A stretch of DNA of 62,365 bases, the filler included. It is 9 parts of 9 records of this genome, joined end to end, with 100 filler letters (N's around TTAATTAATTAA, not from the genome) between each part and the next. Parts side by side here need not be neighbours in the genome. Positions count along the whole stretch, not along the records: positions 13,062 to 18,087 come from DRR723986_35060; positions 18,188 to 30,225 come from DRR723986_35062; 7 more parts are not named here. The stretch is one strand, 5' to 3'. The position numbers and the translations under genes were made by a program. A model generated the notes under the pieces. It searched no databases. It had not been told where the DNA came from and was given only the letters and a program-made list of their open reading frames with translations. Of the stretch, positions 13,062 to 18,294 are shown in pieces (within the stretch, counting starts at the first letter, position 1; each line of letters starts with the position of its first letter).

Positions 13062-13892
13062 AAACTCGCGCCAGACCAGCTCTTTCAGGAAATGCTCAGC
13101 CCCCTTGCCACCCGCCCCCTCCATCGCGCGCCAGCCTGCGTGCCAGCATTGGCGGGGGGATATTTCGCCATAGGCCAGCGGCTCTGACAGGCCAGATGTG
13201 GCATCGAGATCGAGAAAATCCCGCTCGTCCCTGTAGCGTGCGCTCTGCGTCTCGATGAACGAAGTCAGTCGGGCCATCGCAGCCGCTTCCCCAAGCAAAA
13301 GGTGCCTTTCCACGATGTCCACGCCGCGCTTCATCGCGGCATCAAGCGCCCAGTCCTTGAGGGACTCGCTGTCTGGCCAAGTGGCGGGAAAGATCAGGTC
13401 CGGCACCTTGAGCGGCGCGGGAACGTCTCGGTCACGGACCGCCCGCCAGAAGGGCGTATAGACCCGGTAAAATCCGCCGGTTCCGGTTTCCACGGTCCAG
13501 GGCTCGAACAGCAGATGCGCGTTGAAGCTTTCAACCGCGATCCCACGTTCCTTGAGGGCCGCCTTGACCCGGCTGTCCCGATCCCGTGCCGCAGGATCAT
13601 AAAGCCGGTTCCACACGACCCTGGTCGCGCCGGTTTCGGCGATCAGTTGCAGCAGAACCTCCAGCGCGTCGCCCGTGCGCAGAACGACCTTGCCTCCGCG
13701 CGGGCCAAGATTTTTGCAAAAATCTTCCACCGCCCGGCCGAACCGGAACGCCGGGGCCGCGCCGAGATCGCGGACCGAGCCGTCGCGGATCACCACCGGG
13801 ATCACAGGCTGCCCGGCGCAGGAGGAGAGCGCCGGGTTGTCAGCCAACCGAAAATCCCGGCGCATCCAGTAGAGGATCGGTGCTGTGCTCAT
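13062..13892 (-). CDS. Deoxyribodipyrimidine photolyase (3' truncated by contig end)
   Basis: Motifs WMRRDFRLADNPAL, YRVYTPFW, TSGLSEPLAYGEISPR, FLKELVWREF. Confidence 0.93.
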
Positions 13893-13951
13893 TGCCCTGC
13901 CCTTGTCATTGGATCACGACACTTAGGGCGGGCGATCAGGCGGTCAACGGC

Positions 13952-15169
13952 TCAGATCACCTTGTCGAGGGCGCGGATCAGCTGATTGATTTCGTCCTCA
14001 TTCGTGTAATGGGTGAAGCTCAGCCGCAGAACCCCCGCATCGGCGTCGATGCCCATGGCCTGAAGCGCACGCACGGCATAGAAATCGCCGCCGCCTGCCA
14101 TGATGCCATGCGATGACAGATCAGCCGCTGCCGCCTCCCCCGGACGGTTCAGCGCCACCGCAACTGTCGGCGCGCGGCCCTCGGCTTTAGCGGGGCCAAG
14201 AAGCCGGGCAGAGTTCTTCGAGGCCAGGTAATCCAGCAGCGGCTGCAACAGCGCCTTTTCATGATCCCGCATCAGGCCATGCGCAAAGCGGGCCGCCCCG
14301 GCCCCGCTGGCCGGTCCTCCGTGATGGGCGGACATTGCCTCCATGTAATCGGCCATGCCTGCGCTGGCCGCGACCTGGGCGTGATCCGGCCCGGCCGGGG
14401 TGAAGCGTTTGTAGAGCGAGCCTTCGTTGAAATTATGCCCCTGGTTCGGCAACGCCTCGCCAAGTGCACGCCGGATCACCATGATACCCTGATGCGGCCC
14501 GTAGGTCTTGTAGGCCGAGAACAGGTAGATATCGGCCCCAAGTGCGCCCACATCCTCGAACCCGTGCGGTGCATAGCTGACGCCATCAACGCAGGTATAC
14601 GCCCCCGCCACCCTGGCCTGCGCGCAGATCGCGGCCACGTCGTTCACTTCGCCCACCACGTTGGAACAGTGCGGGAAACAGACCAGCCGGACCTTGCCAT
14701 CAGCCATCAGAGTCACCAAGGCCGCAGGGTCCAGATGCCCGGTCTCGGGGTCGATCTGCCATTCGCGAACCTCGATCCCCTCATGCGCAAGCCGTCGCCA
14801 GGGGCCGGAATTGGCCTCGTGATCCTGATTGGTCACGACGATGGCATCCCCGTCCCCCAGATGCTGCCGAAACGCTTGCGCCAGAACATAGGTGTTCTGT
14901 GTGGTCGAGGGGCCGAAGCTCAGCTCATCCGTATCCACGCCCAGCATCGCCGCCAGACGGCTGCGCGCTTCGTCCATCTCTTCACCGCCCAAACGACTTG
15001 CCTCATAGGGCGCATAGGGCTGCACCTTGCGTTCGGTGTAAAAGCGAAACAGCCGGTCAATCACCGGCTTGCAGGTATAGCTGCCGCCCGCGTTTTCAAA
15101 GAAGGCCTGCCCCTGAAGGGAGGGCTGCGAAAAGGCCGGGAACTGCGCCCGTACCCAGTCAATATCCAT
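13952..15169 (-). CDS. Aminotransferase class V / cysteine desulfurase-like PLP enzyme
   Basis: MDIDWVRAQFP, FENAGGS, DHEANSGPW, VDGVSYAPH, FSAYKTYGPH (PLP lysine). Confidence 0.9.
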   Translation of the reverse strand: MDIDWVRAQFPAFSQPSLQGQAFFENAGGSYTCKPVIDRLFRFYTERKVQPYAPYEASRLGGEEMDEARSRLAAMLGVDTDELSFGPSTTQNTYVLAQAFRQHLGDGDAIVVTNQDHEANSGPWRRLAHEGIEVREWQIDPETGHLDPAALVTLMADGKVRLVCFPHCSNVVGEVNDVAAICAQARVAGAYTCVDGVSYAPHGFEDVGALGADIYLFSAYKTYGPHQGIMVIRRALGEALPNQGHNFNEGSLYKRFTPAGPDHAQVAASAGMADYMEAMSAHHGGPASGAGAARFAHGLMRDHEKALLQPLLDYLASKNSARLLGPAKAEGRAPTVAVALNRPGEAAAADLSSHGIMAGGGDFYAVRALQAMGIDADAGVLRLSFTHYTNEDEINQLIRALDKVI

Positions 15170-15360
15170 GGTGGTCACTTTGCGATCCTTTGTTTTGTCA
15201 CCCTCTCGGGAAAGCCGCACCACAGGCGGGCATCCCCAACCTGGCAGGTCTTCCAGCCGAGCCGGCGACCCCGGCGGATCAGCGGCAGCCGCAGGCCGAT
15301 GCCGGCGACAGGATATGGCTACGACAGGCCATGCCCCGGGTCAATCACCCGCCGCCAACG

Positions 15361-15392
15361 GAAAATCCCCCGCCGGTTGTCCGACGGGGGAT
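15361..15392 (-). terminator. Intrinsic terminator after the BCCT gene
   Basis: Minus strand reads ATCCCCCGTCGG-ACAA-CCGGCGGGGGAT-TTTC. Confidence 0.7.
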
Positions 15393-15417
15393 CGCTTGGT
15401 GTTTCAGGCAGGATGCG

Positions 15418-17067
15418 TCACCCGCGATAGACGCTTTCCACACCCTTCCGTTCACGGGCGGCATCGCGCCAGATACCCTTGATCACGGCAAAGCCCATCA
15501 GCAGCATCACGAAGCTGAAGGGCAGCGCCCCGATGACCATGGCGGTCTGGATCGCACCCAACCCGCCGATGACCAGCAACGCCCCCACGACCAGCGCCAG
15601 GGCAGCGCCCCAGAACAGGATATGCGGACGGCCCTTCGGCCCTTCATCCCCGCCGGAATTGATCGTGTTGACGATCAGAACCGCAGAGTCAGCCGAGGTC
15701 ACCAGATAGGTCAGCAGCAGGATCACCACGATCACCGCCATCACCCAGGCCAGACCCGAGGACAACATGACATCGAGCATCGCAAAGAGCTGCGATTCCG
15801 CGCCTGCGCCAGTGATTGCATCGCCCGCATCACCGTTCAGGGTCAGGTCAATCGCGGTGCCGCCGACAATGGCGAACCAGACGAAGCACATCGTCGACGG
15901 GATGATGATTGCACCAAGAACGTATTCGCGCACGGTCCGACCACGGGAAATACGGGCCAGGAACACGCCCACGAAGGGGGCAAACGCAATCCACCAGGCC
16001 CAGTAGAACACCGACCATCCGCCCTGCCATCCGGCAAGTTGGGTCGCCACCGAGTCTTCCACGCCATCTGCCCGCCAGACGGTGAACATCATCGACGGCA
16101 GATTGACGAGATAGTCAAAGATGCCGACGAACAGCGCCTGAAGGCCGAAGAAGGTAGAGCCGAAGATCAGGAAAAAGGCCAGCAGGAAGAAGCTGAGACC
16201 CATGTTGATATTCGACAGCCACTTGATGCCCTTGCCCACGCCGGACAGCGCCGACAGGGTGGAGGCCCCCATGATCACCACCAGCGCGAAGATGATCGCC
16301 ATGGTCGAGGCGCTGCCATCGTCATTCAGCAGCCAGTCGCCAAAACCGATGCGATGCACACCGGCCACGAACTGGTTCACCCCGAACCCGAGCGTTTGCG
16401 ACACGCCCAGAACCGTTGCAACCACGGCTACGATATCGACAACATGGCCAAGCGTGCCGGACAGCGACCGCCCGAACAGCGGCACCAGCGCCGACCGGAT
16501 GGTCAGCGGCAGATTGCGGCGATACGAGAAATAGGCCAGCGACAGCCCGACCAGCGCATAGCAGGCCCAGGCCCCGATGCCCCAATGCAGGAACGACCAC
16601 CTATAGGCATTGCGCACGTTTTCCGCGGTCGATCCTTCCGCGTCGCCCATGATCACATCCGGATTGGTCGCGAAATGATAGATCGGCTCAGCCGTTGCAA
16701 AGGTCAGCATCCCGATACCGATCCCGGCCCCGAACATCATCGAGAACCAGGAAAAGTTCGAAAACTCCGGTTTGTCTTCCGGCAGACCAAGCGTCAACCG
16801 CCCCGTCGACGGCACAAGTGCCAGAAGGATGCAGACGATGATGAAGAAAGCGACGACCCAGATATACCAGGCTGCGAAATTCGCCAGCAGGAAGCTGTTC
16901 AGGCTGCCAAGCACGCTGGCGGCGTTGTCGGGGAAGGCAACGGCCCAGATGATCAGCGCACCGACCAGAATCTTTGCTGTTACCGTGACGTCCTTGCTGA
17001 ACCCGTCATAAAATCCGCCTTGTGCGGTCTTGATCGGCAGTTCCATCAATGGGGGCTTATTTGCCAT
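15418..17067 (-). CDS. BCCT family (betaine/carnitine/choline) transporter
   Basis: About 12 TM helices. Motifs PEFSNFSWFSMMFGAGIGIG, HWG, WSVFYWAWWIAFAPFVGVFLARISRGRT, TSADS. Confidence 0.96.
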   Translation of the reverse strand: MANKPPLMELPIKTAQGGFYDGFSKDVTVTAKILVGALIIWAVAFPDNAASVLGSLNSFLLANFAAWYIWVVAFFIIVCILLALVPSTGRLTLGLPEDKPEFSNFSWFSMMFGAGIGIGMLTFATAEPIYHFATNPDVIMGDAEGSTAENVRNAYRWSFLHWGIGAWACYALVGLSLAYFSYRRNLPLTIRSALVPLFGRSLSGTLGHVVDIVAVVATVLGVSQTLGFGVNQFVAGVHRIGFGDWLLNDDGSASTMAIIFALVVIMGASTLSALSGVGKGIKWLSNINMGLSFFLLAFFLIFGSTFFGLQALFVGIFDYLVNLPSMMFTVWRADGVEDSVATQLAGWQGGWSVFYWAWWIAFAPFVGVFLARISRGRTVREYVLGAIIIPSTMCFVWFAIVGGTAIDLTLNGDAGDAITGAGAESQLFAMLDVMLSSGLAWVMAVIVVILLLTYLVTSADSAVLIVNTINSGGDEGPKGRPHILFWGAALALVVGALLVIGGLGAIQTAMVIGALPFSFVMLLMGFAVIKGIWRDAARERKGVESVYRG

Positions 17068-17412
17068 AGAATTCTCCTCCCATATGTTCTGGAAAAACTG
17101 TTTTGCGGACGTCTCCCACAGCTCCTTTCCATACCGCTCCCGGAGTCGTTTTTCCGAAATGAACCGGGTGCGGCCGTCTGTCTCTCCCTTGCGGCAAGCC
17201 TTAGAGCGGGGGGCTGTCCTTTCTTGTACAAAAACGGCACTTCCCCCCCCGGCGGCGGCGTCAAAGCGCCTTGAAGCGACGCAACCTGAGGATGAGACCC
17301 GGCCAGAGCCTGCGAACCGGACACAGCGCGGTCAGGGTCGTTGCAGAGTCAATAAAATCAGGGGTCTCACCGCATGAGACACCCATAGCTTCCTGTGGCT
17401 CGCTTGGGTGGT

Positions 17413-17874
17413 CTACGTCGTCAATCGCCGTACGAACCGCCGCTCTGTCTGCGGCTGCTCGTGAAACCCGAAAGCCTGATAGGCCTGGCAGGCCGCGTGG
17501 TTTTCGGGCATGGCCGCGACACTCAGCACCCCGGCCCCGAGCCCCTCGGCCAGCCGCTCGGCAGCGCCCACAAGGGCGCGTCCAACCCCCTGCCCGCGCA
17601 CCCCCTTGTGCACATAGAGATGGTGCAGATCCATCGCCCGTTCGCCGAACTGAACCCGGGCACGCGGACACAGCATGGCGTAACCGCAGAGCGACCCGGC
17701 CCGCTCTGCCACCAACACATGAAGCCAGGGCGCCTGGCCCAGGCAGTCGCGCGCCAGTGTTGCGGGGGTGACGGTCGGGGTGTCGCCGTGGAAGCGGGCG
17801 AGGTGACGGACCATATCGGCCAGCGCCTCGAGATCCTGGGGCGTGACGGGGCGAATGATCGGGCTTTGGGGCAT
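17413..17874 (-). CDS. GNAT family N-acetyltransferase (SSAT-like)
   Basis: IRPVTPQDL, HHLYV, acetyl-CoA motif RGQGVGRAL, ENHAACQAYQAFGF. GGAG RBS precedes ATG 17874. Confidence 0.9.
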   Translation of the reverse strand: MPQSPIIRPVTPQDLEALADMVRHLARFHGDTPTVTPATLARDCLGQAPWLHVLVAERAGSLCGYAMLCPRARVQFGERAMDLHHLYVHKGVRGQGVGRALVGAAERLAEGLGAGVLSVAAMPENHAACQAYQAFGFHEQPQTERRFVRRLTT

Positions 17875-17914
17875 GTCTTGGTCTCCGGCTGGGACCATCA
17901 AAGCCGGATCACAT

Positions 17915-17940
17915 AAAAAAACCGCCCCTGATGGCGGTTT
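17915..17940 (-). terminator. Attenuator terminator upstream of the GNAT gene
   Basis: Minus strand reads AAACCGCC-ATCAGG-GGCGGTTT-TTTT. It lies between the leader ORF and the GNAT start. Confidence 0.85.
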
Positions 17941-17968
17941 GTCTTATCTGCACATGGTATCCGCCGCT

Positions 17969-18016
17969 CTATGAGAACGCGCGATAATAAACAGACATTG
18001 CGAATGGATGGGTCAT
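17969..18016 (-). CDS. Putative leader peptide MTHPFAMSVYYRAFS* (Tyr-Tyr)
   Basis: 15-codon ORF not in the ORF track. TTGACG-N17-CAAAAG ends 6 nt before the ATG, implying a leaderless start. It overlaps alternative hairpins. Confidence 0.72.
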   Translation of the reverse strand: MTHPFAMSVYYRAFS

Positions 18017-18294
18017 ATGTCGCTTTTGCTCAGGTCACAACGCCCCGTCAAGCCCTTCCCCTTTCATCTTGGTAAAAATACCTCGGGNNNNNNNNNNNNN
18101 NNNNNNNNNNNNNNNNNNNNNNNNNNNNNNNTTAATTAATTAANNNNNNNNNNNNNNNNNNNNNNNNNNNNNNNNNNNNNNNNNNNNTCTTCGGTCATCG
18201 GTCTTCCAACCTGATAAACAAGGAATCTAGGGTGACTGGCGCCATTTCGGATAATCATATTTCGAATCTTTCAATTTTCCAATCTCGAATCCTA

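Follow-up and report, generated by a model that had tools for sequence, protein, structure and literature searches.

A candidate leader-peptide attenuator with tyrosine-dominated aromatic codons ahead of a GNAT acetyltransferase gene in Rhodobacteraceae

Results

Organization of the locus

The window analyzed here is a stretch of 62,365 nucleotides made up of contigs chained by runs of N and TTAATTAATTAA linkers (8 linkers), along which the G+C content alternates between 35–40% and 55–63% from one joined contig to another. One of these contigs (13062-18082; 5 kb, 62% G+C) carries on its minus strand the gene for a GNAT N-acetyltransferase, which is followed in the window by genes for a BCCT transporter and then a cysteine-desulfurase-like class-V enzyme, and which is preceded by the leader whose elements are collected in Table 1. 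The start of this leader lies only 31 nt from the end of the contig; the AT-rich DNA past position 18187 belongs to another contig and is thus uninformative on the upstream context of the leader. The original prediction had described a promoter, a short reading frame with two Tyr codons, alternative hairpins and a terminator in front of the acetyltransferase gene, and all of the elements it listed were found in place on the minus strand between positions 18051 and 17872.

Table 1. Features of the leader and of the gene downstream of it. Positions are those of the window.
Feature	Position	Strand	Remarks
-35 box TTGACG	18051-18046	minus	sequence reading
-10-like hexamer CAAAAG	18028-18023	minus	17-nt spacer after the -35 box; 6 nt before the ATG
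Leader ORF MTHPFAMSVYYRAFS + TAG	18016-17969	minus	15 codons; ATG at 18016, TAG 17971-17969
Putative sensor codons TAT TAT	17989-17984	minus	codons 10-11, i.e. -6 and -5 from the stop
Segment 1 TATCGCGCGTTCT	17986-17974	minus	5' strand of the 1:2 hairpin, within the ORF
1:2 hairpin loop CAT	17973-17971	minus	sequence reading
Segment 2 AGAGCGGCGGATA	17970-17958	minus	G-rich box GCGGCGG; predicted partner is segment 1 or segment 3
Conserved box CATGTGCAGATA	17956-17945	minus	GCAG/CAGA predicted to pair with codons 8-9 in an outer helix enclosing the Tyr codons
Intrinsic terminator AAACCGCC-ATCAGG-GGCGGTTT + T-run	17940-17915	minus	arms are segment 3 (AAACCGCC) and segment 4 (GGCGGTTT), loop ATCAGG; seven T in all
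Hairpin TCCGGCT...AGCCGGA	17908-17884	minus	overlaps the GNAT Shine-Dalgarno GGAG, 17886-17883
GNAT N-acetyltransferase gene	17874-17413	minus	153 aa; Pfam PF00583

An in-frame TGA at 18037-18035, 18 nt before the leader ATG, shuts the frame upstream, so that the leader ORF does not form the end of some longer gene. Segment 1 starts from the second Tyr codon, and the GGAG is placed 8 nt ahead of the GNAT ATG at 17874. With 8 pairs, 5 of them G-C, the terminator is the top terminator-like site in a scan of the contig; the region contains 9 such sites, compared with 4.6 +/- 2.2 in shuffled sequences. The predicted fold of the 112-nt leader has a free energy of -34.2 kcal/mol (z = -2.57); an equally stable fold was seen in 2 of 200 shuffles. 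That the leader element is more than chance follows mainly from its conservation at 29 other loci.

The acetyltransferase and its genomic neighborhood

The gene product matches Pfam PF00583 at 6.4e-16 (59.1 bits against a cut-off of 20.7), and its AlphaFold model has a pLDDT of 94.1. A Foldseek comparison places SSAT and thialysine N-acetyltransferase as the nearest solved folds (TM 0.76-0.84), while by sequence the nearest enzymes are phosphinothricin, methionine-sulfoximine and thialysine acetyltransferases (E about 1e-6); NCBIfam models give weak, sub-threshold similarity to AAC(6') and ArsN1. SSAT and the acetyltransferases for phosphinothricin, methionine sulfoximine and thialysine have small amines and toxic amino-acid analogues as their substrates.

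The genes dmdA and acuI (DMSP demethylase and acrylyl-CoA reductase) are common, not universal, upstream of the leader and GNAT. Downstream of the GNAT gene the neighbors differ among loci, being BCCT, HIT, YidC, ABC transporter or photolyase genes, or genes on the opposite strand. Since the genes on both sides vary, the conserved unit is the leader plus the GNAT gene.

Distribution of the leader among relatives

A protein-guided scan of genome contigs identified the GNAT in five Nioella genomes (72-78% identity) and in Aliiroseovarius (58-62%), and every Nioella and Aliiroseovarius GNAT gene from that scan is preceded by the same leader. Of 401 Rhodobacteraceae genomes searched in six frames, 33 have the GNAT; two of these (G122 and G200) were left out, having no locus in the six-frame result. 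The search yielded 28 new loci, of which 19 carry a leader of the same build even though their enzymes are just 35-51% identical; the other nine are without the leader, and one of these (L051) resembles a decayed copy in which ATC replaces the ATG. One further candidate (L011), with 39% identity across 55 residues, was excluded as not orthologous, and a locus identical to another across the leader (L007 and L006) was counted once. The resulting set of 30 distinct leaders thus comprises that of the window, nine from the protein-guided scan, 19 from the six-frame search and one (L079) from a search with an RNA model, and the GNAT homologues behind them are 35-78% identical. In a FastTree phylogeny of the enzymes the copy in the window is sister to those of Nioella, in a tree that is poorly resolved, and the nine genes lacking a leader are dispersed among the 30 that have one, 20 of 36 forks being open.

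A class-level sample placed the GNAT, at E <= 1e-18, in 2 of 401 Alphaproteobacteria genomes, and in the sole new GNAT-bearing genome of that search the gene has no leader. Searching 151 Rhodobacteraceae genomes with a covariance model of the leader (R1) returned 27 matches in 21 genomes. Five of these are genuine leaders, all of them ahead of this GNAT, and the leader is tied exclusively to one GNAT family across those 151 genomes; the other 22 matches were discarded as ordinary terminators, at gene ends or within genes. A search with the short pattern TAGARCGG-N(4-12)-CATGTGC hit 37 sites, spread over 36 of 401 Rhodobacteraceae genomes, a yield similar to that of the reversed-pattern control (roughly 32). 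The Nioella sites (G001 and G083) were the only leaders among them; the others lay in coding DNA and were rejected. These data suggest that the predicted leader switch precedes one GNAT family in many marine Rhodobacteraceae.

The leader reading frame and its aromatic codons

Homologous leaders were expected to keep the short ORF, and they do: all 30 contain an open frame that starts 35-38 nt after the start of TTGAC. Most are 15 codons long (18 leaders) or 16 (seven), two have 14 codons, and lengths of 10, 19 and 22 codons occur once each. The leader frame is open in 30/30 sequences, whereas 51 stops interrupt the two alternative frames of these leaders. A G-rich box follows the stop codon in each of the 30.

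Tyrosine accounts for 47 of 461 leader residues (10.2%), as against 13 of 862 (1.5%) in the other two frames. An aromatic residue is found at codon -6, counted from the stop, in 20/29 leaders and at -5 in 24/29, and that residue is Tyr in 16/29 and 19/29, respectively. The window and many other leaders have Tyr-Tyr, three Nioella leaders and L075 have one Tyr, with Thr before it, Phe-Tyr and Tyr-Cys each occur in two leaders, and elsewhere the motif reads Trp-Tyr-Phe, Phe-Tyr-Phe, Phe-Tyr-Tyr-Tyr or Trp-Phe-Phe; one leader (L063) is without Tyr, and another (L057) has TAA at the second Tyr position. Of the idea that Tyr-Tyr sits at a fixed distance from the stop, one half stands, in that Tyr is present in 29/30 leaders and aromatic residues gather at -6/-5; the Tyr-Tyr pair itself is not fixed. 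The putative sensor is therefore best described as a Tyr-dominated aromatic pair or triplet, and not as a fixed Tyr-Tyr.

Outside the aromatic codons the peptide varies freely. Residues 12-13 differ among leaders (RA, RP, PL, AL) with the RNA pairing kept, and synonymous changes (TAT/TAC, GCA/GCC, ACT/ACC) are found. The Tyr codons of the leaders are TAT and TAC in a ratio of 37:7 (84% TAT), whereas in the GNAT genes TAT makes up about 50% of Tyr codons, TAT:TAC being about 1:1 by a rough count with a crude ORF rule.

Promoter geometry and the start of the RNA

TTGAC is exact in 28 of the 30 leaders and has one mismatch in the other two, and the distance from its start to the leader ATG is confined to 35-38 nt throughout. 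Relative to the A of the ATG, position -11 is A in 22/30 leaders and position -1 a pyrimidine in 29/30. This geometry of -35 box, -11 and -1 positions is consistent with transcription beginning at the A of the leader ATG, and among the 30 leaders examined the ORF has no Shine-Dalgarno sequence ahead of it. Judged by promoter geometry, the leader mRNA is probably leaderless. S. meliloti rnTrpL, as presented in the available text of PMC6614838, provides a precedent for a leaderless attenuator RNA in the Alphaproteobacteria.

Among the contigs assembled from RNA libraries, three extend from the upstream gene into the leader and stop at 18005, 17963 and 17954, and the sequence they contain 5' of the predicted start, which takes in the predicted promoter, is either read-in from acuI or DNA carry-over. 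One 210-nt contig covers 18059-17850, across the terminator; some molecules do cross the terminator, although contigs of this kind cannot reveal starts, ends or levels. Sequencing depth in one run was 57 on the upstream contig and 2.8 on the GNAT piece, figures that are not usable as evidence of expression, and the same holds for stretches uncovered by RNA-library contigs.

Conserved structure and covariation

RNAalifold was run on ten close leaders, a covariance model was built from that alignment, and the leaders were realigned to the model; on a MAFFT alignment of 24 leaders RNAalifold predicts no structure. The ten close leaders gave the 1:2 hairpin, the terminator and an outer helix, which joins codons 8-9 to the GCAG of the conserved box CATGTGCAGATA and thereby places the Tyr codons in an internal loop. 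This box is invariant in the window and the five Nioella leaders and nearly so in Aliiroseovarius. The covariance model recovers 24 leaders within the loci. In a 21-leader alignment (A6), which was fitted to the structure of the model and hence leans towards it, the model's pairing holds in 87.8% of cells and 13 of the 20 pairs have changes on both sides, with a covariation score of 0.409 as compared with 0.193 for shuffled alignments (0/500 as high) and 0.06-0.11 when the partners were slid. Helices 1-4 account for 12 pairs, 11 of which have changes on both sides, including 4/4 pairs in the outer helices 1-2 and 5/5 in helix 4, which involves segment 1; helix 5, the terminator, is 91.6% paired.

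The anticipated covariation of the stems is thus borne out for the 1:2 hairpin and the terminator, and does not extend to the 2:3 antiterminator. The five GGCGG/CCGCC pairs of the latter are paired in 83.7% of cells, are almost invariant and score 0.087 against 0.089 in shuffles. Because these pairs do not vary, covariation speaks neither for nor against 2:3 pairing.

A canonical terminator is present in 25 of the 30 leaders (that of L079 judged by eye), and the remaining five have a hairpin without a U-tract. In 22 of 24 canonical-terminator leaders the distance from the terminator to the GNAT start is 29-48 nt, and in the other two it is 20 and 63 nt. A hairpin is always present in this interval, and of the 25 leaders with a recognizable Shine-Dalgarno sequence 21 have it paired to 75% or more; in several lineages its partner is the U-tract of the terminator itself. 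The proposed overlap of the last hairpin with the GNAT ribosome-binding site is present in the window, while occlusion of the site is not clearly above that in shuffles (mean 0.83 vs 0.69).

Simulated folding of the switch

Folding was simulated for the 24 leaders with a canonical terminator, using the RNA that exists before the 3' arm of the terminator is made and a ribosome that masks up to 13 nt beyond the A-site codon. A ribosome placed on the aromatic codon gave a fraction of 0.74 of the terminator 5' arm already paired at this point, compared with 0.27 when the ribosome was absent and 0.24 when it occupied the stop codon. Scanning the A-site codon along the leader gave a pre-paired fraction of about 0.74 from -8 to -3, falling to 0.48 at -1 and low also at 0. 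When the spacer was shuffled, 0.54 of the terminator arm was still paired (mean dG -9.8 vs -12.8 observed), and just 5/24 leaders exceed 95% of their own shuffles. In this model, the effect of ribosome position on the terminator arm is real, though modest against the shuffled control. Whatever the simulated state, the terminator forms at equilibrium, so that a switch of this kind must be kinetic, as in classical attenuators.

Discussion

Taken together, these results suggest that the leader is a ribosome-mediated transcription attenuator that serves a single GNAT acetyltransferase gene, a reading to which we assign a probability of about 0.7. The attenuator layout put forward in the original prediction is supported across the leaders, in which the ORF, the aromatic codons, the 1:2 hairpin and the terminator are kept. 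A sigma-70-type promoter would start the RNA at, or 1-2 bases from, the A of the leader ATG, and the ribosome would then translate the 15-codon leader from a leaderless mRNA. Where charged tRNA-Tyr is plentiful, the ribosome would reach the stop codon and cover the G-rich box just behind it, and in the event of no translation this box would be locked in the long 1:2 hairpin; with the ribosome at the stop, or none on the leader, the terminator would form and the transcript would end at about position 17915. A ribosome stalled on the Tyr codons at -6/-5 would mask the 5' side of the 1:2 hairpin; the freed GGCGG would then base-pair with the terminator's CCGCC ahead of the synthesis of its other arm, allowing RNA polymerase to enter the GNAT gene. 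The leaders of other lineages would sense tRNA-Phe or tRNA-Trp as well. On this account GNAT is probably made only when ribosomes lack charged tRNA-Tyr. We infer that the leader is translated, that its RNA begins at or next to the ATG, that segments 2 and 3 pair in vivo and that the switch responds to tyrosine; against a Tyr attenuator stands the fact that the GNAT has no known role in tyrosine supply.

The breadth of the simulated response bears on a different trigger, namely that the leader senses a general slowdown of translation, such as that caused by a ribosome-targeting antibiotic (the ermC, cat or Term-seq type), and that the GNAT confers inducible resistance. The antiterminator would then open upon a stall anywhere in the last third of the leader, which agrees with simulated antitermination being equally high for stalls at codons -8 to -3, and the enzyme does resemble acetyltransferases that detoxify small molecules, down to its weak, sub-threshold NCBIfam similarity to AAC(6') and ArsN1. 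A sensor of general slowdown would, however, have no need of the sole peptide feature conserved in the 30 leaders, an aromatic, mostly Tyr, pair at a fixed place, and no conserved drug-dependent arrest motif is seen in these leaders; we consider this explanation improbable.

The same aromatic residues could in principle belong to a nascent arrest peptide responding to a small molecule in the ribosome tunnel (the TnaC/SpeFL type), and not as hungry codons. The interchange of Trp, Tyr and Phe resembles selection on the chemistry of the residue, and the distance from motif to stop is nearly fixed, at 4-6 codons in 22/24 leaders. Known arrest peptides retain a longer motif, though, while here the rest of the peptide varies, even between the motif and the stop (RA, RP, PL, AL, RR, ST and others), and the preference for TAT over TAC in the leaders, which exceeds that in the GNAT genes under the crude ORF rule, argues for selection at the level of the codon. 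A sensor of this type is, in our judgement, quite improbable. That there is no switch at all, the hairpin and U-tract ending an acuI operon upstream, or a small independent RNA gene, and the expression of the GNAT being unrelated, is very improbable, for although RNA-library contigs reach from the upstream gene into the leader and the Nioella hairpin after acuI has no adjacent U-tract, the leader accompanies the GNAT regardless of the upstream gene, the covariance model locates it nowhere else in 151 genomes, and promoter-like spacing is not conserved between the terminator and the GNAT start.

The resemblance of the GNAT to enzymes acting on small amines and toxic amino-acid analogues suggests that it may remove a tyrosine look-alike that blocks the charging of tRNA-Tyr. 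The leader and enzyme might then form a self-diagnosing antidote, in which the aromatic codons detect the fall in usable tRNA-Tyr caused by the look-alike, and the GNAT acetylates and so disarms it; we offer this extension tentatively and regard it as doubtful. Candidates for the look-alike are analogues, D-aromatic amino acids and inhibitors of tyrosyl-tRNA synthetase. The portion of PMC8762209 available cites a GNAT-related enzyme with acylating activity on D-Phe, D-Tyr and D-Trp. The D-Tyr-tRNA deacylase gene dtd (PF02580) is found in 341 of 401 Rhodobacteraceae genomes and in 20 of 21 leader-bearing ones (it was not found in G377); it shows no anticorrelation with the leader in the 401-genome sample, which neither supports nor refutes the idea that D-Tyr is the target, an idea from which no specific distribution of dtd follows. 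The antidote reading, if true, would describe an attenuator that serves antimetabolite resistance and not biosynthesis, and would provide a function for an orphan GNAT family that is often found beside the DMSP genes dmdA-acuI.

Leader-peptide attenuators are textbook systems for Trp, His, Phe, Leu, Thr and Ile/Val. With the classical examples of E. coli (trpL, pheL, hisL and pheM) the GNAT leader shares a short leader containing codons for the sensed amino acid, which in those systems is translated, and an intrinsic terminator ahead of the gene under control, together with alternative 1:2, 2:3 and 3:4 hairpins, of which the 2:3 pairing is a prediction in the GNAT leader. It differs from them in having one to three aromatic codons, dominated by Tyr, in an mRNA that is probably leaderless, and in that the regulated gene is a lone GNAT gene, not a biosynthetic operon or an aminoacyl-tRNA synthetase. 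A search of Rfam gave no family match, the best hit being Phe_leader (RF01859) with 17.5 bits against a gathering score of 55 (E = 4.1), and a search of the literature, covering full texts exclusive of supplements, returned no tyrosine-reading leader peptide and no report on this GNAT or its leader.

The closest parallels combine some of these features. In the available text of bioRxiv 10.1101/834739, leaderless poly-Cys short ORFs of mycobacteria similarly use their codons to report the supply of one amino acid downstream, but they read Cys and not Tyr, belong to another phylum and work by operon polarity. The aroR leader of C. glutamicum shares the mixed aromatic codons, in the form Phe-Tyr-Phe, and differs in preceding a DAHP synthase operon and, as far as the portion of PMC11802643 available goes, in apparently not being leaderless; it is reported to respond to Phe and not to Tyr (PMC11802643), so that a Tyr codon in a leader need not mean that Tyr is sensed. 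A further parallel is trpL of S. meliloti, whose RNA, rnTrpL, is a leaderless transcript encoding a 14-aa leader peptide according to the accessible sections of PMC6614838. The GNAT leader, itself probably leaderless, would share this alphaproteobacterial attenuator type, with the difference that trpL has Trp codons, controls trpE(G) and has been shown in S. meliloti to play a role as a trans-acting sRNA (PMC6614838, same sections). The GNAT leader would guard a lone orphan acetyltransferase and not the pathway that makes the sensed amino acid, linking an orphan enzyme family of abundant marine bacteria to the charging of tyrosine or aromatic tRNAs and giving a handle on its function; provided that its mRNA is leaderless, as is probable, it would represent a second type of leaderless attenuator in the Alphaproteobacteria beside trpL.

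Composition of the window and the conserved DNA around the leader

The window is a pseudomolecule of contigs, with eight joins between them, and any feature that spans a join is an artefact. The G+C content of the contigs alternates across these joins, at 35-40% versus 55-63%, and the DNA of the window therefore comes from two organisms or more, one of them low in G+C and another Rhodobacteraceae-like. An A/T-rich block that directly precedes the -35 box of the leader is nearly invariant across the window and five Nioella loci (L001-L005), and may act as an UP element or as a binding site for a regulator.

Within the invariant box of the leader lies a three-codon mini-ORF (MCR-stop), which Nioella preserves. 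Among the four distinct Aliiroseovarius leaders, three (L006, L008 and L009) keep ATG TGC AGA and lose the stop after AGA; in the fourth, L010, the third codon is changed as well. No Shine-Dalgarno sequence is evident for this mini-ORF, which probably exists only because the outer helix is conserved.

Features of the window and of the homologous loci
Feature	Position	Strand	Location
N-run/TTAATTAATTAA/N-run joins (n=8)	window 6713, 13006, 18132, 30270, 37529, 43079, 49411, 57150		between contigs
A/T-rich block, GGTATTTTT(A/G)CCAAGATGAAAG	window 18053-18082	minus	just upstream of -35 box
Mini-ORF ATG TGC AGA TAA	window 17943-17954	minus	within invariant box
dmdA/acuI	L001 575-2723; also L008, L010, L050, L063, L069, L070		upstream of leader-GNAT

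Variation in the terminator and the leader ORF

In six leaders (L006, L008, L009, L010, L050 and L070) a predicted pairing joins the U-tract of the terminator (UUUUCUUUU) to the purine-rich Shine-Dalgarno region of the GNAT gene (GAGAAAGGA), bridged by a small G/C hairpin in the stretch from the terminator to the GNAT start. If the prediction holds, one U-tract would serve both termination and masking of the Shine-Dalgarno. The U-tract is absent from five leaders (L056, L057, L058, L062 and L072), in which a hairpin of the GCCGCC...GGTGGC type precedes a strong hairpin that covers the Shine-Dalgarno; control in this subgroup may act on translation, or may rely on Rho in place of intrinsic termination. 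Two further variants are unusual. The leader of L057 (oriented 1351-1385) carries TAA at the exact place of the second Tyr codon, followed by an in-frame RRFT-stop. Upstream of the GNAT gene of L051, ATC replaces ATG and the short ORF is absent, with the promoter spacing, a hairpin, a CATGTGCGGA box and a terminator-like hairpin all kept.

Genes around the leader-GNAT unit

At 11 of the 30 leader loci the leader-GNAT unit is immediately preceded by genes of DMSP metabolism, either dmdA with acuI or only acuI, which was recognised from its conserved C-terminus; in the window, the contig ends just past the G/C-rich hairpin that comes after acuI in Nioella. One assembly of Aliiroseovarius crassostreae holds two leader-GNAT copies (L006 and L007) about 41 kb apart on the same scaffold, identical across the 280 nt compared; either the region is duplicated or the second copy is an artefact of assembly. 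Directly after GNAT, a HIT-family (histidine triad) gene is found in two lineages (L050 and L069). HIT hydrolases act on aminoacyl-adenylate-like compounds, and such a neighbor would be consistent with the detoxification of a synthetase inhibitor.
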